A stretch of DNA of 32,000 nt from positions 5,220,001 to 5,252,000 of the forward strand of contig NZ_CP074694.1 of NCBI RefSeq assembly GCF_018398935.1, written 5' to 3'. The notes below the pieces were generated by a model. That model was not told the origin of the DNA and made no database searches. It saw nothing but the letters and a program-made list of their open reading frames with translations. This DNA comes from Telmatocola sphagniphila (lineage in GTDB: Bacteria; Planctomycetota; Planctomycetia; Gemmatales; Gemmataceae). Positions 2,716 through 29,260 of this stretch are shown piece by piece. The number at the start of each line of letters is the position of its first letter. Position 1 is the first letter of the stretch. A program made the translations under genes and the position numbers.

Positions 2716-2815
2716 CTTTTGATAACTCTCGACTTTTTTTCATTTTTCCTGCGCCGCTTCACGAGATCTTGTCTCTAATAAAAGTCGATTCGGTACTCGA
2801 TCAGAGTTGTGCTTT

Positions 2816-4666
2816 ATGTCTTCGGAAACCTCGAGCCGTTTGCAGCAGTTTATTCGTAGACTCCGCGAGGAAGCGGTGCCGCCGGAGGATATGTGTTTGT
2901 GGAATCGTTACGTTCAGTCGGGCGATCAGGCTGCGTTCGAGATTTTGGTGTATCGTCATGGTCCGATGGTGTTGGCCTGTGCGCATCGTTTGCTTTCGAA
3001 TCGTACGGATAGCGAGGATGTGTTTCAGGCGACGTTTTTGAGTTTGGCCCGTTCAAAGCATCGGATTCGAGACTCCAAAGCTCTCTCTTCGTGGCTGTAC
3101 AAAACGACCTTCCGTTGCGCGCTCAGACTTCGAGCGCAGCGGAAGCAGGCCGTGCCTTTATACGATGAGACTCTTTCGAGCAATCCAACAGAAAGTGACC
3201 CGGCCTGGCGTGAGGTGAAAGGGGCTTTGGACGAGGAACTTTCGAAGTTGCCAGAGCGTCTTCGAATGCCGCTTGTGTTGTGTTATCTGAACGGTCTGTC
3301 TCGGGATGAGGCAGCGAAGCAGTTAGGCTGGTCGTTTACTTTATTGAAGCGACGTTTGGAAGAAGGGCGACGAGTATTGCGCGTTCGGTTGGAACGGCGG
3401 GGAATCTCGGCAGCGGGCTTGGCCTTAGCCGTGCTCTCACCTCAAGCGTTGCAGGCGATGGTGAGTCCGACTCTGGTAAATAGCTGTTTGGCCTTAATTT
3501 TTTGCAAAGAAACAAGTTTACCGGCCGGTATAGCCGCCTTGGTAATGAGTACATCCGCGATCACGAAAGGATTAGTCATGAAATCAATAGCGATGGCTGT
3601 ATTGTGTAGTGGTCTGGGCATCTGGACCTATACGAGCATGGGGCAAGGACTGGCTCCTCAGGAGAAGCCGGTTGTGAAGGCTGGTCCAGGGACGATAGGA
3701 GATACTTCGCGTGGGGAAATCAAATCGGAAGAGAGAACGGCGAGTTATACTCAGCAATTACGCAGCCTGGACAATCTCAAAAAAATTCTCTTGGCCGTGC
3801 ACGAGTATATGGATTTTACCAAGATCAATATGTTGCCCGCGGACTTCGAGGATGAAAACGGAAAACCGCTTCTGAGTTGGAGAGTCGAATTACTTCCCTT
3901 TTTGGGAGAAAAGGAACTTTATAAACAGTTTCATCACAACGAGCCTTGGGATAGCGAACAAAATTTAAAACTCATGGCCAAGATGCCGGAGGTGTATCGT
4001 GTCGGCTTCGAATCTAAGGATTCGACCCATACTCACTATCAAGTATTTGCGGGGCCCGGGACTCCGTTGCATCCGGTTCATGTGAATCAAGCGAAAGGTG
4101 GTCCAGGTGGCTCTTCTAAGAATCCCCGAAATTTAATCACCGTCTTTGATGTAACCGATGGAATGTCGAATACTCTGGGGGTCATCGAAGCGGGTCCCGC
4201 CGTTCCCTGGACTAAACCGGCCGATATTCCTTTCGATCCGACCAAGCCACTGACGAAAATTCAGGCTCTCTTTTCCAATAGTCTGCATTTGGCAATGATG
4301 GATGGAAGTACGCACGCAATACGTCCTGGCAGTGTCGAGGAAAAGACCATGAAAGCATTCATTGGCATGAATGAGGGCGAGATAGTCCCGGAGATGAGTT
4401 CCTTTCGTGCTCGGATAATCCCGATCTCTGCTGCGGAAAAGGAGGATTTCCAGCAACGAACGGCAAATAAAAAATCGTTGCTTGAAAAGATCATTGCCTT
4501 GCAGACCGAGCAGAAAGAATTACTGAAGAAATTCGAGCAACCAAATTCGGATCTGTCAGTTAATCAGGAGATGATTCAAAAACTGGAAAGCAAACTCGAA
4601 AAAATGCAGTGGGAAGTTGCCTGGATGAAACGAATTCTGGAAGAGGTCGAGAAAAAAGAGAAGTAA
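2816..4666 (+). CDS. Fusion protein: ECF sigma factor - TM helix - DUF1559-like domain - C-terminal coiled coil (paralog 1)
   Basis: The N-terminus has sigma region 2 (DSEDVFQATFLSLARS...WLYKTTFRCAL) and region 4 (LPERLRMPLVLCYLNGLSRDEAAKQLGWSFTLLKRRLEEGRRVLRVRL). Hydrophobic segments follow (GISAAGLALAVL..., VMKSIAMAVLCSGLGIWTYT). Next come DUF1559 signatures (LDNLKKILLAVHEY, LLSWRVELLPFLGEKELYKQF..PWDSEQN, DGMSNTLGVIEAGPAVPWTKPADIPFD, HLAMMDGSTHAI). The tail is a heptad-rich K/E segment. I place the start at ATG 2816 rather than the TTG at 2807 in the ORF track, because MSSETSSRLQQFIRRLREEAVPPED is conserved from that ATG in the paralog. Confidence 0.85.
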   Translation: MSSETSSRLQQFIRRLREEAVPPEDMCLWNRYVQSGDQAAFEILVYRHGPMVLACAHRLLSNRTDSEDVFQATFLSLARSKHRIRDSKALSSWLYKTTFRCALRLRAQRKQAVPLYDETLSSNPTESDPAWREVKGALDEELSKLPERLRMPLVLCYLNGLSRDEAAKQLGWSFTLLKRRLEEGRRVLRVRLERRGISAAGLALAVLSPQALQAMVSPTLVNSCLALIFCKETSLPAGIAALVMSTSAITKGLVMKSIAMAVLCSGLGIWTYTSMGQGLAPQEKPVVKAGPGTIGDTSRGEIKSEERTASYTQQLRSLDNLKKILLAVHEYMDFTKINMLPADFEDENGKPLLSWRVELLPFLGEKELYKQFHHNEPWDSEQNLKLMAKMPEVYRVGFESKDSTHTHYQVFAGPGTPLHPVHVNQAKGGPGGSSKNPRNLITVFDVTDGMSNTLGVIEAGPAVPWTKPADIPFDPTKPLTKIQALFSNSLHLAMMDGSTHAIRPGSVEEKTMKAFIGMNEGEIVPEMSSFRARIIPISAAEKEDFQQRTANKKSLLEKIIALQTEQKELLKKFEQPNSDLSVNQEMIQKLESKLEKMQWEVAWMKRILEEVEKKEK

Positions 4667-4806
4667 TTTTTTCGGCTTTCCTTGCTGAGAGCCAGCACGT
4701 TAGAGTTGATAAGCCAATTTCGTTTTTTTCATTTTCCTTGCGCCACCGAGAGAGTTCCCGGCTCTAATTATTGTCGGGAATGATTTGAGCCAGAGTGGCC
4801 TCTGTT

Positions 4807-6780
4807 ATGTCTTCGGAAACATCGAGCCGTTTGCAGCAGTTTATTCGTCGACTTCGCGAGGAAGCGGTGCCTCCGGAGGATGGGTGTTTATGGGATCGTT
4901 ACGTCCAGACGGGAGATCAGCATGCGTTTGAGATTTTGGTGTATCGTCATGGGCCGATGGTTTTAGCCTGTGCGTATCGGATGCTCTCGAATCGTACCGA
5001 CAGCGAAGATGTCTTTCAGGCCACGTTTTTGAGTTTGGCTCGTTCCAAGCATCGGATAAGAGACTCGAAAGCTCTTTCGTCCTGGCTGTACAAAACGACC
5101 TTCCGTAGTGCTCTTAAACTCCGCAACCGGACCAGACCAACTGAACAGTTACTTGAAGAAACACTTTCCTCTGACGGTAACGAAACAGATCTCGCCTGGC
5201 GTGAGGTGAAGGGGGCATTGGACGAGGAGTTGCAGAAGTTGCCGGAGCGACTTCGATTGCCGTTGTTGTTGTGTTATTTGCAGGGTTTATCTCGGGATGA
5301 AGCGGCGAAGCAGTTAGGCTGGTCGTTTACTTTATTGAAGCGACGTTTGGAAGAAGGTCGACGAGTATTGCGCGTTCGGTTGGAACGGCGGGGAATCTCG
5401 GCAGCGGGCTTGGCCTTAGCCGTGCTCTTACCTCAAGCATTGCAGGCGATGGTGAGTCCGACTCTGGTAAATAGCTGTCTGGCTTTGATCTTTTGCAAAG
5501 AGACTACAGTGCCCGCCGCGATAGCGGCGTTGACACTTACAACCTCTGCGATCACGAAAGGATTGGTAATGAAAGCGATAGCGACAACGGTGTTGTGTGC
5601 CGGTCTGGGAATCTGGTCTTATACGACTATGGGACAGGGAATAGGATTAATTCCTCCAGAGAAGGGAATTAATAAAGGGGTACCGGGAACGCTCGGCGAT
5701 TCTTCACAAGCAGAAAACGCTCCTCAGGAAAGAACGGCGAGTAATACGCAGCAATTACGCAGTCTAAATAATCTTAAGCAGATCGCTATCGCGATATTGA
5801 ACTATGAAGCCGCCTATGGTTATCTACCTGCGGACACAGTGGATCAAGATGGAAAAGCTCTTTTGAGTTGGCGAATTGAATTGCTACCCTACTTGGGCCG
5901 TGCGGATCTATACAACCAATTCAAGCGCGATCAAGCCTGGGACAGCGAGCACAATTTAAAACTTTTGGCCAAGATGCCGGATGTATATCGCGTTGGCTTT
6001 GAAGCGAAGGACTCGACGCATACTTACTATCAGGTTTTTGCAGGCCCCAATACTCCTCTGCATCCGATGCTTCGAGAGAAAGAGAAAGAGAAAGGGAAAG
6101 GCCCCCCGGGTGCTCTTGGCCTTGCTGGTAACAAGGCTGGTGCCGAAGTAGCCGGTCCAGGTGCAACGGGTCCAGTAGGCAGCTCTGGTCCGGGTGCGGG
6201 AATGGCCATGGGACCTGGCGCGGGAATGGGCCCTATGGATCCTCGCATTCGCATTCGCATTGCGGATATTTTCGATGGCACTTCAAATACCATTGGAGTC
6301 GTGGAAGCCGGTCCAGCAGTACCCTGGACCAAACCCGCCGATATTCCTTTCGATCCGACGAAGCCGCTACCAAAAAATTCAACACCCTTTACGAACAGTT
6401 TCCATCTGACCATGATCGACGGCACTACGCATGCCATACGTCCCAACATCGACCCGAAAATACTGAAGGATTTCATCGGCATGAACGATGGGGCAGTACT
6501 TCCAAGAATGAGTTCCTTTCATGCCGAAATCACGCCTCCCACGCCTACCGAGAAGGCGGAATTACAAAAGCGAATTGAACAGAATGGTACATTGTTGGAG
6601 AAAATGGCAGCCTTGCAGTCCGAGCAGCGAGAACTTCTCGGCAAGATCAATCATGGGAGCCTGGACATCATAGCGCACCGCGAAGTCGCCGATTTATTCG
6701 AAAAAACATTGAAGCAGATTCAGGCAGAAAACCAGCAGTTGAAAGCGATTATTCAAGAGATCGAGAAACAGGGGAAGTAA
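4807..6780 (+). CDS. Fusion protein: ECF sigma factor - TM helix - DUF1559-like domain - C-terminal coiled coil (paralog 2, with Gly/Pro-rich insertion)
   Basis: Same architecture as 2816-4666 and collinear over the full length. DUF1559 signatures are present (LNNLKQIAIAILNYEAAYGYLP, LLSWRIELLPYLGRADLYNQF..AWDSEHN, DGTSNTIGVVEAGPAVPWTKPADIPFD, HLTMIDGTTHAI). An extra low-complexity block is encoded at about 6061-6264. Start taken at ATG 4807 (the track begins at GTG 4795). Confidence 0.85.
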   Translation: MSSETSSRLQQFIRRLREEAVPPEDGCLWDRYVQTGDQHAFEILVYRHGPMVLACAYRMLSNRTDSEDVFQATFLSLARSKHRIRDSKALSSWLYKTTFRSALKLRNRTRPTEQLLEETLSSDGNETDLAWREVKGALDEELQKLPERLRLPLLLCYLQGLSRDEAAKQLGWSFTLLKRRLEEGRRVLRVRLERRGISAAGLALAVLLPQALQAMVSPTLVNSCLALIFCKETTVPAAIAALTLTTSAITKGLVMKAIATTVLCAGLGIWSYTTMGQGIGLIPPEKGINKGVPGTLGDSSQAENAPQERTASNTQQLRSLNNLKQIAIAILNYEAAYGYLPADTVDQDGKALLSWRIELLPYLGRADLYNQFKRDQAWDSEHNLKLLAKMPDVYRVGFEAKDSTHTYYQVFAGPNTPLHPMLREKEKEKGKGPPGALGLAGNKAGAEVAGPGATGPVGSSGPGAGMAMGPGAGMGPMDPRIRIRIADIFDGTSNTIGVVEAGPAVPWTKPADIPFDPTKPLPKNSTPFTNSFHLTMIDGTTHAIRPNIDPKILKDFIGMNDGAVLPRMSSFHAEITPPTPTEKAELQKRIEQNGTLLEKMAALQSEQRELLGKINHGSLDIIAHREVADLFEKTLKQIQAENQQLKAIIQEIEKQGK

Positions 6781-26662: not shown

Positions 26663-27562
26663 TTAGCCGATTTTAGGACGGTTGGCTATCGCGGTGCGGA
26701 TGATTTTCAGAATTGCTTCCCGCTCGGCCCCGACGATAGGCAGACGCGGCGCCCGCACCATTTCGCTGCCCATGCCGACCTCGGCCATGGCCAATTTGAT
26801 GTACTGCACCAGTTTCATGTGGGTATCCAGGTGCAATAACGGGGTGTACCAGCGGTAGACTTTCACAGCCTCGGCATAGTTATTCGCCATGGCCAGGTCC
26901 CAAAGCAAACGGTTTTCGGCCGGGAAGGCATTCACCAGTCCCGATACCCAACCGACGGCCCCGAGCATCACGCTTTCCAGAGCCAGATCGTCCACGCCGC
27001 AGAGCAACGTGTAGCGATCGCCGCAGACATTCTTCAAATCCGTGATCCGGCGAACGTTTTCCGACGATTCCTTGATGGCAACGAACTTCGGTTCGTCCGC
27101 CATGCTCAGGAACATCTCGGGAGTGATGTCGACTCCGTAAGCGACCGGATTGTTATAAACCATGATCGGCAGATCGCTGGCCTTGGCCACGGTTCGGAAG
27201 TGGACGATCGTTTCACGCGGGTCGCTCTTGTAGACCATGCCGGGCAGGACCATTAAGCCGTGAATACCCGCTTTCTGGCAATCGGCGGAATAGCGACAGG
27301 CCAAATTTGTGGTCGTCTCGGCCACACCGCTGAGCACTGGCACCCGACCCTTAGCCGCTTCCAGAGCGCACTTGAGGACCTGGAACTTCTCAGCGTACTC
27401 CAGCGAGCAATTCTCCCCGACGGTGCCGAGCATGATCAGCCCGTGCACCCCGGCCGCGATCAACTTCTCGATATGCAGGGCCGTTCCTTCGAAATCGATG
27501 GATTGATCGGCGTGGAACTGTGTGGTTACCGCAGGGTAGACACCTTGCCAGGTCACTTTCAT
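26663..27562 (-). CDS. DHDPS/N-acetylneuraminate lyase family protein; candidate 1-pyrroline-4-hydroxy-2-carboxylate deaminase
   Basis: A class I aldolase family pattern is present (GLIMLGTVGE, GVAETTT, Schiff-base lysine context FVAIKESS). It is the first gene of a tightly spaced 3-gene minus-strand cluster with the epimerase and FAD dehydrogenase. Confidence 0.7.
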   Translation of the reverse strand: MKVTWQGVYPAVTTQFHADQSIDFEGTALHIEKLIAAGVHGLIMLGTVGENCSLEYAEKFQVLKCALEAAKGRVPVLSGVAETTTNLACRYSADCQKAGIHGLMVLPGMVYKSDPRETIVHFRTVAKASDLPIMVYNNPVAYGVDITPEMFLSMADEPKFVAIKESSENVRRITDLKNVCGDRYTLLCGVDDLALESVMLGAVGWVSGLVNAFPAENRLLWDLAMANNYAEAVKVYRWYTPLLHLDTHMKLVQYIKLAMAEVGMGSEMVRAPRLPIVGAEREAILKIIRTAIANRPKIG

Positions 27563-28031
27563 GGATATTTCCTATCGGGAAGAAGACAAAACTTATTATT
27601 GCATCCAAAAGCAAATTTGGCAATGGTTGTTCCGGTTCTTGTTCGGAAAGCTTCTCGCAGTACTTGATCCGAAACGGACTGGAAAACAATCGAAATTCGC
27701 TCCTGCATTCTCTTTATCAGGAGGTAATCAGGTCATCATTTTATGTGAGAAGCCAACGAAAGATTGATGAGTTTTAAAGAGAAAGCCTTATTTTGAGACA
27801 GATTGCGAAACTCATGCTGCCAATCTCGCAATTTGAGGACGTTGCTTTACCCGGTTACAAAGTTGCCACCGCAAATTGATTCAGTCCCTGTAGCAAAATG
27901 GCTCAGAGTTCATTTTTACAAATTCCAAAAAGGCTTTACGATCTGGAAGATGGGCCGAATTTGCGTTTATTTTAGGCTCAAACTCCCCCTTTTGGGCTCT
28001 TTCGGGCTCTGTTTGAAACTATTTGCTCTTT

Positions 28032-28049
28032 TGGCACGGTCATTGCATT
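28032..28049 (+). promoter_or_regulatory. Sigma-54 (RpoN) -24/-12 promoter element
   Basis: TTGGCACGGTCATTGCAT reads as TGGCACG-N4-TTGCA, a base-perfect match to the canonical YTGGCACG-N4-TTGCW consensus. GG is at 28033-34 and GC at 28045-46. The predicted transcription start is near 28058, 3 nt before the first hairpin of the downstream structured region. Confidence 0.6.
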
Positions 28050-28057
28050 TAAATATT

Positions 28058-28268
28058 TTCGTGCGGTAGCGAGTCCCGCACACGGGTCGGGAATGCGAGT
28101 CCCCGATCCACTTTCTCATCAGTTCTCTCTTCAAGGGTGGACACGAGAGCCAAAAACTGGAGTGCGAGTTCCAGTTCAAAACTCTCGTGTCCTCACCTCG
28201 TTTCATCGAGAACGAAATAATTAAAGCCACCCGATTCAGATAGCTCTGAGTCGGGTGGCTTCTTTTAT
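28058..28268 (+). ncRNA. Candidate sigma-54-dependent structured small RNA (about 210 nt) with three GCGAGU-loop hairpins
   Basis: H1 pairs 28061-66 with 28076-81. H2 pairs 28084-91 with 28102-09 and includes one G.U. A CU-rich linker spans 28111-34. H3 has an 11-bp outer stem (28139-49/28182-92) and a 7-bp inner stem (28155-61/28170-76). A 16-bp terminator stem follows. The apical loops read UAGCGAGUC, AAUGCGAGUC and GUGCGAGU. The two wobble pairs are G.U only on the + strand. I recognise no matching RNA family. Confidence 0.55.
28225..28268 (+). terminator. Strong intrinsic terminator (usable in both directions)
   Basis: AGCCACCCGATTCAGA (28225-40) pairs with TCTGAGTCGGGTGGCT (28245-60): 16 bp including one U.G, with tetraloop TAGC. 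It is followed by TCTTTTAT on the + strand. On the - strand it is followed by TTTAATTATTT and lies about 33 nt past the desaturase stop (28293). Confidence 0.8.
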
Positions 28269-28292
28269 GGGCGAACGCTACTTTTTTGGTTG

Positions 28293-29159
28293 TCAGTTGG
28301 TCGTGGGAATCATCTTCTTGGCAGGCGGCTTGCGCAGATCCCAAACCAATCCGAAGACGTTCATCACTTTGAGTGTGTAATAGCTGATGTCGATTTCCCA
28401 CCAGTAGAAGCCTTGATTGGCCGAGCTCATGTAGTGGTGGTGATTGTTGTGCCAGCCTTCGCCCAGGGTGACGATTGCCACCAGAGCGTTGTTGCGGCTC
28501 TGGTCGGTCGTGGCGAAGCGTCGGCTACCCCAGACGTGGCAGAGAGAATTCACCAGGAACGTACCGTGGTAAAGCACAACGGTGCTGATTACGAATCCCC
28601 AGACGAAGGCCGACCAGCCTGAACCCGAGGTGAAGTAACCGTAGAGATAACAGGCCACACCAAGCAAAAATGCCGGGATATAGTGGAATTTTTCGAGCAG
28701 CAGGATCTCGGGGTACTTCAGAAAATCCTTGACGCCGTGCAGGTCGACGTTGTCCTCGTTGCTGTCGAGAACCCAGCCCACATGCGACCACCAGAGGCCG
28801 TGTCGAATGGGAGAATGCGGATCGTTTTCCTGATCGGAATATTTGTGGTGATCGCGGTGATTGGCGGCCCACCAGAGCGGCCCTTTCTGCAGGGCGCTGG
28901 CGCCGATCCAGCCCATCATGAAGCCGACGAATCGATTCGTTTTATAAGCGCGGTGGCTGAAATACCGATGGTAACCAGCGGTGATCCCAAACATCCGAAG
29001 CACATACAAGCCGACGCAAAGTGCTACTACGTCCCAGGTGACAGGAACAAAGAAAACAGCAACAACGGCCAGGTGAAGAAGGATAAAGGGAACTTTGTTG
29101 ATATTGCGGGCGAAAAAACCGGAAGGAAGGGTGGATTGAACGGCCATATTGTTGGCCAT
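28293..29159 (-). CDS. Acyl-CoA (delta-9 type) fatty acid desaturase
   Basis: All three histidine boxes are present (HRYFSHRAY, HRDHHKYSD, HNNHHHY), and the hydrophobic segments are arranged as in the membrane desaturase family. Start set at ATG 29159 (MANNMAVQS...). The ORF is open up to 29219. Confidence 0.85.
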   Translation of the reverse strand: MANNMAVQSTLPSGFFARNINKVPFILLHLAVVAVFFVPVTWDVVALCVGLYVLRMFGITAGYHRYFSHRAYKTNRFVGFMMGWIGASALQKGPLWWAANHRDHHKYSDQENDPHSPIRHGLWWSHVGWVLDSNEDNVDLHGVKDFLKYPEILLLEKFHYIPAFLLGVACYLYGYFTSGSGWSAFVWGFVISTVVLYHGTFLVNSLCHVWGSRRFATTDQSRNNALVAIVTLGEGWHNNHHHYMSSANQGFYWWEIDISYYTLKVMNVFGLVWDLRKPPAKKMIPTTN

Positions 29160-29260
29160 TCTTCCTAGTGTCGGTACGTTCAAACGTGGAACCTCGAAAA
29201 AATCGGCCTGCGGTAGCAACCAGCAGAAGCCTCAAACCTGAGCGAACTAAAATCAGCGCG

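Follow-up and report, generated by a model that had tools for sequence, protein, structure and literature searches.

The intergenic region and its predicted promoter

The window analysed here, a stretch of 32,000 nucleotides of Telmatocola sphagniphila (contig NZ_CP074694.1; positions count from its first letter), contains a 730-nt gap between a gene of the dihydrodipicolinate synthase (DHDPS) family (26663-27562, minus strand) and a fatty-acid desaturase gene (28293-29219, minus strand). The DHDPS-family gene is the first of a cluster that also includes proline racemase-like and FAD oxidoreductase genes (hydroxyproline cluster). Within the gap, positions 28058-28267 of the plus strand appear to form a free-standing regulatory small RNA (sRNA) gene belonging to a conserved family of Planctomycetota, a conclusion that is well supported by the comparison with related loci presented below.

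The gap carries the sole exact sigma-54 (-24/-12) consensus of the window, TGGCACGgtcaTTGCA at 28032-28047 on the plus strand. The pattern TGGCACG-N4-TTGCW was matched exactly once in the 32-kb window, compared to 0.01 matches expected by chance, and no further site appeared in the window when one mismatch to the sigma-54 consensus was allowed. An earlier reading of this stretch from its letters alone (the sequence-only reading) had reported a full consensus match, which is correct, while the span it gave for the element (28032-28049) was two bases too long; its predicted transcription start near 28058 coincides with the position obtained by counting 12 nt from the -12 GC. Its view that the gap has no credible open reading frame (ORF) requires some qualification, as mechanically called ORFs of 88, 144, 43 (28093-28224) and 68 aa do cross the gap, but none of them has a match in Pfam (0 matches in the scan of the gap ORFs). 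The promoter and the comparisons below support an RNA gene that is driven by a sigma-54-type promoter.

Architecture of the predicted RNA

Folding recovered the three hairpins and the terminator that the sequence-only reading had proposed, with GCGAGU present in the loops of all three hairpins. Hairpin H1 (28061-28081, plus strand) consists of a 6-bp stem (28061-28066 paired with 28076-28081) and the loop UAGCGAGUC, and hairpin H2 (28084-28109, plus strand) of an 8-bp stem with one G.U pair (28084-28091 paired with 28102-28109) and the loop AAUGCGAGUC. They are followed on the same strand by a pyrimidine-rich, G-poor linker (ACUUUCUCAUCAGUUCUCUCUUCAAGGGU, 28110-28138), which is mostly unpaired in the fold, and by the nested hairpin H3 (28139-28192) with the loop GUGCGAGU. 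The outer stem of H3 comprises 11 bp (28139-28149 with 28182-28192, GGACACGAGAG/CUCUCGUGUCC) and its inner stem 7-8 bp (28155-28161 with 28170-28176, AACUGGA/UCCAGUU), and the hairpin folds with -29.9 kcal/mol (z = -6.4). Directly 3' of H3 lies the plus-strand tail UCACCUCGUUU (28193-28203), whose CACCUC resembles an anti-Shine-Dalgarno sequence; this conserved tail had not been mentioned in the sequence-only reading. The H3 loop of the window can also be read as a G.U and a U.G pair closing a GCGA tetraloop, a reading that leaves one bulged C when applied to the family consensus described below.

The predicted RNA ends in an intrinsic terminator (28224-28268, plus strand; -31.3 kcal/mol, z = -9.0) with a stem at 28224-28261, the tetraloop UAGC and the subsequent CUUUUAU. 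Stem, tetraloop and U-tract had been described before, with the stem counted at 16 pairs rather than the 17 found here. The convergent desaturase gene has its stop codon at 28293, and the terminator hairpin is located 31 nt past it; on the minus strand the hairpin is followed by UAAUUAUUU; the terminator may be bidirectional and serve both the RNA and the desaturase transcripts.

For the RNA as a whole the minimum free energy of the plus strand is -96.4 kcal/mol (z = -8.8), and the minus strand folds as well (z = -9.4), with H1 and H3 folding slightly better on the minus strand and H2 and the terminator better on the plus strand. Folding energy was consequently discarded as a strand test, both strands being alike in this respect. 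The two pairs 28086:28107 and 28235:28250, which had been put forward as an argument for the plus strand, are real G.U pairs, but this argument is weak alone; it is the promoter, together with the U-tract and the family model described below, that decides for the plus strand.

The motif GCGAGT is not enriched in the window (15 copies versus 15.4 expected), while the three copies of the RNA are all located within 100 nt, each in a hairpin loop. Outside the family members, no second cluster of at least two hairpin-displayed GCGAGT motifs within 200 nt was detected on either strand of about 1.5 Mb of unrelated and control loci. Each locus contains one copy of the RNA, and no other copy is present in the window.

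Identification of relatives

Scans of public genomes and metagenomes together with retrieval through a neighbouring protein yielded approximately 35 distinct relatives. The first scan covered one genome per species with a pattern composed of the promoter and two GCGAGT motifs and returned 75 loci, compared to about 65 estimated by chance. Among these, L009 and L051 share the whole architecture of the window copy. Their outer H3 stem (GGGCACGGGG/CCCCGUGCCC) differs from that of the window (GGACACGAGAG/CUCUCGUGUCC) by compensatory changes, and the tail CACCUCUUUU is common to all three; neither the outer stem nor the tail was part of this search pattern. The second scan was directed at metagenomes and used the 3' module only (TGCGAGT, a gap of 8-38, then CGTGNCC-N-CACCTC-N-TT), without promoter or 5' hairpin. 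It returned 46 loci, 41 of which are members, and these together with L009, L051 and the window amount to 34 distinct sequences (33 relatives and the window copy; 31 from metagenomes).

Since the pattern of the second scan dictated the H3 loop, some of the outer stem and the tail, invariance of these parts among its members is not evidence. The pattern left free the promoter, the loop of the 5' hairpin and the 5' side of H3, whose conservation does count as evidence. A third retrieval was carried out via the ABC ATPase encoded next to the RNA in L051 and involved no RNA pattern. The complete element was present in L135-L137 as well as in L138 (ABC ATPase relatives, 79% identity), with the H3 loop UAGCGAGUC and the tail CGUGCCCGCACCUCUUU, which independently confirms the parts imposed by the pattern and indicates that the second loop position can be U or A, as in H1 of the window. 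In L139 and L140, which encode more distant ABC ATPase relatives in a different synteny, the element was absent.

The other searches were negative. BLASTN of two family representatives against the plasmid collection gave no match. Synteny through the DHDPS-like protein of the window led to closest relatives (77-80% identity) that are flanked by other genes and lack the RNA, and three Gemmataceae/Gemmatales genomes collected by ftsY synteny show nusB-ftsY or other contexts without the RNA there. Eight pattern hits in viral contigs were rejected as chance matches in coding-like sequence. Four Caulobacter loci (L004, L010, L012 and L065) carry a conserved sigma-54-type promoter TGGCACGCTGTTTGCC upstream of a gene for a MANSA...GEFGLSD product; they were picked up by the promoter pattern by chance and are unrelated to the RNA family.

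Conserved features, covariation and family model

The relatives share the -24/-12 promoter, an upstream enhancer-like site (at about 140 bp), a 5' hairpin, a G-poor linker, the nested 3' hairpin and the tail NCACCUCUUU. Both the 5' hairpin and the nested 3' hairpin present the loop N(U/A)GCGAGUC in the family, i.e. the hexamer GCGAGU on which the sequence-only reading had focused is present but forms part of a longer conserved motif. GG-N10-GC was retained in 34/34 of the distinct members first collected, at the same distance from the first hairpin, and in every member with enough upstream sequence the -24/-12 element lies 20-30 nt before a hairpin with the loop (U/A)UGCGAGUC. In an alignment of 30 sequences (A4), which includes 27 metagenome members, the loop GCGAGUC of the 5' hairpin is invariant throughout (30/30).

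The stems on which these loops are displayed change freely and in a compensatory manner. Compensatory changes occur at 6/7 pairs of the 5' hairpin, and both sides have changed at 5/12 outer and 6/6 inner pairs of H3. RNAalifold applied to A4 returned the 5' hairpin and both H3 stems, with compensatory double changes at 18/30 pairs. Paired cells amounted to 93%, compared to 29-49% when the partners were slid by 1-3 columns; the covariation score was 0.496 versus at most 0.14, and 164 doubly changed cells were counted versus 55 ± 7 in shuffles. The sequence-only reading had named a search of related genomes and a covariation test as checks, and both turned out in its favour, with about 35 relatives found and covarying stems.

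A covariance model (R1) was built from an alignment (A6) of 30 relatives from which the window was excluded. It matched the window at 28075-28204 of the plus strand with 56.6 bits (E ~1e-11); at E<=10 neither strand gave any other match. Within this match H2 of the window is aligned to the 5' hairpin of the model, while H1 remains outside, which identifies H1 as an extra loop module specific to the lineage. The three-loop display noted earlier is thus true of the window, but only two modules are family-wide. Correspondingly, the window carries two N(U/A)GCGAGUC hairpins (H2 and H3), the 3' one nested and followed by NCACCUC. When R1 was applied to 99 further loci, only the five truncated members matched, with 45-113 bits on the forward strand versus 18-22 bits on the reverse strand. 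No match was obtained in 72 unrelated genome loci, the viral hits, the DHDPS- or ftsY-anchored loci or L040, a Planctomycetota locus with a promoter and two GCGAGU motifs that was dropped as a relative since the family model does not match it. With its conserved promoter, its covarying stems and the match to R1, the window copy is supported as a discrete structured-RNA gene on the plus strand, in agreement with what the sequence-only reading had proposed from the promoter and the folds.

The sequence NCACCUC(U/G)UU occurs 3' of H3 in the window, L009, L051, L135 and L138 without having been searched for, while elsewhere it was part of the search pattern. The linker of the relatives measures 10-36 nt and is G-poor and C/U/A-rich, often with CCUCC, CUCC, CACCUC or CACCUCC. 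Most relatives end at H3 and CACCUCUUUU without a separate terminator; L082 has one. Additional, apparently unpaired GCGAGU motifs were observed between the conserved hairpins of L009 (AAUGCGAGUAUCC), L051 (CAUGCGAGUAGAA) and L086 (CACGCGAGUCGAA), which together with the extra hairpin of the window shows that the copy number of the motif varies between lineages.

Two further loci deserve mention. A close strain (L123, from a JGI metagenome; 1356-2085 compared to 27563-28292 of the window) differs by six substitutions in the 730-nt gap, all of them upstream of the predicted start, one being located in the unspecified spacer of the promoter, and none in the 210-nt RNA. This pattern is consistent with constraint and is not significant alone. 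L083 contains a full-length match to the family model (768-900, 53 bits); in a pattern search no recognizable -24/-12 element was found in the 200 nt preceding its H3 loop motif, where the sequence looks coding-like. This locus may represent a decayed copy or a chimeric contig.

The upstream enhancer-like site

A candidate binding region for a bacterial enhancer-binding protein (bEBP) is located at 27871-27906 of the plus strand and consists of a distal unit GCAAATTGATTCAG (27871-27884) and a proximal unit TGTAGCAAAATGGCTCAG (27889-27906), the latter starting 143 bp upstream of the -24 element. The 8-mer TGT[AT]GC[AG]A occurs in 12/32 upstream regions of the family, in all cases between -131 and -147 and in one orientation, a rate 41 times that of the background (about 1.2 Mb of other loci). 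Most members have a tandem pair of units similar to TGTTGC-N8-GCAACA upstream of the promoter, and most of those without the strict 8-mer have degenerate versions of it. Tandem units were also seen in the regions from -110 to -190 of L009, L078-L119, L135 and L138. Judging from their sequence and position, these units are probably the binding site of an enhancer-binding protein.

No bEBP gene was found in the window or adjoining any relative examined. A Gemmataceae genome (GCA_037025025.1, locus L134) encodes a Sigma54_activat/HTH_8 protein and a response regulator directly 3' of ftsY (3943-5328), which indicates that this lineage has the sigma-54 machinery; the family RNA is absent from this ftsY locus. 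Two other ideas concerning the upstream region were abandoned. TTGCG/CGCAA, considered as an enhancer half-site, is inconsistent in its position and was replaced by TGTWGCRA, and a link between UUGCGA in the loop and TGTTGCGA in the enhancer showed no covariation and is regarded as coincidence. An inverted repeat (ATTGCGAAACTC...GAGATTGCGAAT-like, TTGCGA-N17-TCGCAA) is located at 27800-27832 between the hydroxyproline cluster and the RNA gene and was seen in this genome only. It could be an operator of the divergent catabolic operon.

Genomic context and distribution

The genes flanking the RNA differ between lineages, which is in agreement with a free-standing sRNA gene. In the type A context the RNA lies between pyrD and a gene for an alpha/beta hydrolase, and in the type B context it has ftsY and a HEAT-repeat gene on one side and an ABC-2/DUF4340 operon on the other. 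The RNA of L009 precedes upp, while the window copy is located between the hydroxyproline cluster and the convergent desaturase gene.

FtsY and the ABC ATPase encoded beside type B RNAs share 72-87% identity with proteins assigned by name to Gemmataceae or Gemmatales. L009 (CAZNSL010000521.1) and L051 (CAZESP010000020.1) come from metagenome-assembled genomes titled 'uncultured Alcaligenaceae bacterium'; on the 97,917-bp contig of L051 the ABC-2/DUF4340 operon and an FtsY encoded elsewhere are about 80% identical to Gemmataceae proteins. These Gemmataceae-like flanks and the planctomycete-type RNA of L009 render the Alcaligenaceae label doubtful, and both entries are likely mis-binned or mislabelled. 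A distribution across phyla was rejected for this reason, and as far as we can see from the sequences the family belongs to (Gemmataceae-like) Planctomycetota of soil and freshwater.

The gene content of the window is likewise planctomycetal, with DUF1559 proteins, many extracytoplasmic function (ECF) sigma factors and Ser/Thr kinases, and the relatives of its DHDPS protein are named Planctomycetaceae or Gemmataceae. Apart from the RNA, two adjacent plus-strand genes (2807-4666 and 4795-6780) encode proteins of about 620-660 aa in which N-terminal ECF sigma-70 regions 2 and 4 are combined with DUF1559 (SBP_bac_10), an unusual fusion; they adjoin an anti-sigma RskA-like gene (456-1259).

Comparison with known RNA families

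The sequence-only reading did not recognize any described RNA family, and the comparison with Rfam 15 (4227 models; which of the named sRNA families are among them was not checked) agrees with this. There were 0 matches in the whole window at gathering thresholds. In E-value mode (down to E = 10) the region 27560-28300 gave chance-level microRNA and snoRNA matches only, with at most 21 bits compared to thresholds of 55-100. When the L009, L051 and L040 loci were searched, no model matched the RNA copies of L009 and L051, and the sole hit was a tRNA in L040. Literature searches with the loop sequence and for sigma-54 sRNAs of Planctomycetes/Gemmata did not return a description of the family either. 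The kind of RNA is known, as there are sigma-54-dependent sRNAs including one that repeats a loop motif; the family itself has no Rfam match and no description that we found.

Qrr RNAs of Vibrio are sigma-54 sRNAs with several hairpins and a terminator that are activated from upstream by the NtrC-type LuxO; they use a long conserved single-stranded or loop seed together with Hfq and are usually encoded by several paralogous genes. The RNA described here resembles them in its sigma-54 promoter, upstream sites, multiple hairpins and terminator, but Qrr RNAs have no repeated identical loop and the present RNA has no Rfam match. CrcZ is a sigma-54-dependent titrating sRNA controlled via CbrB. With CsrB, RsmZ and CrcZ the family shares one short motif that is repeated at unpaired or loop positions, but this motif is neither GGA (CsrA/RsmA) nor A-rich CA (Hfq/Crc), and there are 2-3 copies instead of 5-22. 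No GGA is present in UAGCGAGUC, AAUGCGAGUC, GUGCGAGU or the family loop consensus, which makes CsrA unlikely as a partner and separates the RNA from CsrA sponges. For Pxr of Myxococcus xanthus a sigma-54-type promoter has been predicted. Pxr is described as having three predicted stem-loops, the first two conserved across a clade (PMC5684412); it differs from the present RNA in phylum, lacks a repeated loop motif and shows no sequence similarity, a distinction based on its description and not on a Pxr model. GlmY and GlmZ, according to general background and the literature (PMC3045617), are likewise sigma-54 sRNAs with upstream GlrR sites and three stem-loops, and GlmY titrates the protein RapZ. 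On the other hand, they have no repeated loop motif, are restricted to enterobacteria and are tied to glmS, whereas no glmS link is visible here and there is no Rfam model similarity.

In design the RNA comes closest to NrsZ, an sRNA of about 226 nt that in Pseudomonas aeruginosa is encoded next to ntrC and depends on RpoN and NtrC; its three stem-loops carry the identical loop motif ACAGGCAG, which forms kissing interactions with the rhlA 5' untranslated region (PMC4253122). Common to both are an RpoN promoter that requires a bEBP (predicted for the present RNA), a length of about 200 nt, one repeated loop motif and a free-standing gene. The differences concern the loop (GCGAGUC versus ACAGGCAG, with no sequence or model similarity), the modules (two family-wide, one simple and one nested, versus three nearly identical, spaced repeats), the G-poor linker and the conserved CACCUC tail, to which nothing in NrsZ corresponds, and the phylum. 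Since the loop motif differs and no bEBP gene adjoins the RNA, we do not assign it to NrsZ; judged by sequence and architecture, the resemblance is one of design, not descent.

Proposed mode of action and alternative explanations

As a whole, the explanation we favour, with about even confidence and largely by analogy to NrsZ, is a sigma-54 sRNA whose repeated loops, and perhaps its tail, pair with mRNAs. We infer that the RNA is transcribed in dependence on sigma-54 and an activator and acts in trans. In this scheme, sigma-54 RNA polymerase and an enhancer-binding protein would transcribe the RNA, with the activator bound to the two tandem sites about 120-160 bp upstream. As sigma-54 requires an enhancer-binding protein, the RNA would be made only while the signal of this activator is present. 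The loop N(U/A)GCGAGUC would be presented on two hairpins, and on three in this genome following duplication of the 5' module. The most conserved unpaired elements of the family are these loops, and they may serve as repeated seeds for kissing interactions, in the manner of NrsZ, with target mRNAs that contain ACUCGC. Base pairing with GGAGG(UG) is possible for both the linker and the tail (CACCUCU), which may thereby strengthen the contact with mRNAs or block translation by occluding ribosome-binding sites of the GGAGGUG type. The promoter, the enhancer-like site, the stems, the loops and the tail are conserved, the strand is established, and the arrangement is independent of the neighbouring genes.

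Several observations speak against this explanation or leave room for others. rpoN is absent from the 32-kb window, and the linker is conserved in composition, not in sequence. The invariance of the H3 loop TGCGAGT, of CGTGNCC and of CACCTC is partly imposed by the search pattern and was independently confirmed in five loci only. Moreover, the flanking proteins of the lineages concerned share only 72-87% identity, yet their loops and tail do not vary, which would suit a conserved protein or a conserved RNA partner no less than mRNA seeds.

A protein partner is the basis of the main alternative, which we consider possible though doubtful and in which the RNA is a titrating decoy following the logic of CsrB/RsmZ or CrcZ and its identical loops bind a dimeric or multimeric RNA-binding protein that is sequestered when the activator is on. 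A 9-nt loop with closing G-C pairs that remains invariant over freely changing stems is typical of protein recognition sites and fits protein binding at least as well as pairing, and the conservation reaches across lineages between which one would anticipate drift of mRNA targets. The number of sites can be read either way: the motif is present in 2-3 copies, with an unpaired one in addition in L009, L051 and L086, yet only two sites are family-wide, far below CsrB or CrcZ. The sigma-54-dependent titrating sRNA CrcZ and the titration of RapZ by GlmY provide precedents. In none of the lineages is the RNA linked to a gene for a candidate protein, and the lack of GGA in the loops excludes CsrA as the partner. 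The tail gives rise to a different proposal, which we regard as improbable, namely mimicry of the 3' end of 16S rRNA, with a stable hairpin standing in for helix 45 and the subsequent CACCUCUUU-3' for the anti-Shine-Dalgarno sequence, and with competition for Shine-Dalgarno sites or for a factor binding the 16S 3' end. If true, the RNA would be a global brake on translation initiation that depends on the sigma-54 signal, with the GCGAGUC loops anchoring it to a conserved partner. The 16S rRNA 3' end reads CACCUCCUUA, and NCACCUC(U/G)UU is located directly 3' of H3 in every member, including the five in which it was not searched for; the RNA also appears to end at the tail in most members, leaving a free 3' end, and several linkers contain a second CACCUCC. 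The match is limited to 6 nt and the U residues, however, so that any C/U-rich sRNA seed would look similar, the H3 loop is unlike the GGAA loop of helix 45, and in the window the tail is internal, with 65 nt more and a terminator downstream.

The comparative sequence data contradict the readings in which there is no separate trans-acting RNA. That the element is a cis-acting leader or attenuator of the downstream gene is very improbable, even though a co-oriented gene is close in several lineages (the hydrolase at about 25 nt in type A, the ABC-2 operon at about 180 nt in type B, and upp in L009), as these downstream genes are functionally unrelated, the window, L079 and L113 have a convergent gene in this position, and the window copy has a strong terminator and no conserved alternative antiterminator pairing. 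We find it scarcely credible that there is no gene at all and that a chance promoter lies beside hairpins resembling repetitive extragenic palindromes or terminators, or that a short ORF is encoded. The minus strand does fold equally well, the last hairpin could terminate the desaturase gene and a 43-aa ORF spans 28093-28224, but the whole arrangement including the promoter has been conserved, with compensatory changes, across differing genomic surroundings, it is present in a single copy per locus and nowhere else in the window, indels in stem length would break any reading frame, and the ORFs have no Pfam match. Two possible mimicries were also rejected. T-loop mimicry (GGUUGCGAGUCC resembling GGUUCGAGUCC of tRNA) was set aside by reasoning, since a loop of 9 instead of 7 nt breaks T-loop geometry. 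The H3 stem motif GGCACG together with UUGC of the loop had suggested mimicry of a sigma-54 promoter, an idea that was given very low weight, as GGACACG takes the place of the stem motif in the window and in type C members, the two elements are wrongly spaced and the search pattern itself dictated part of the stem.

Planctomycetota are abundant in soil and water and have an unusual cell biology and very large sets of regulatory genes, while to our knowledge almost no riboregulation has been characterized in this phylum; none was encountered in the literature searched. With the sigma-54 sRNA and its repeated loops as the favoured explanation, the family offers an entry point, in that the promoter class and the enhancer-like site can serve as bait for the activator and its signal, and the invariant loop and tail as bait for the partner. 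It would be the second independent sigma-54 sRNA that repeats one loop motif, NrsZ being the first, and together the two suggest that the repeated-loop sigma-54 design may be a recurring solution.

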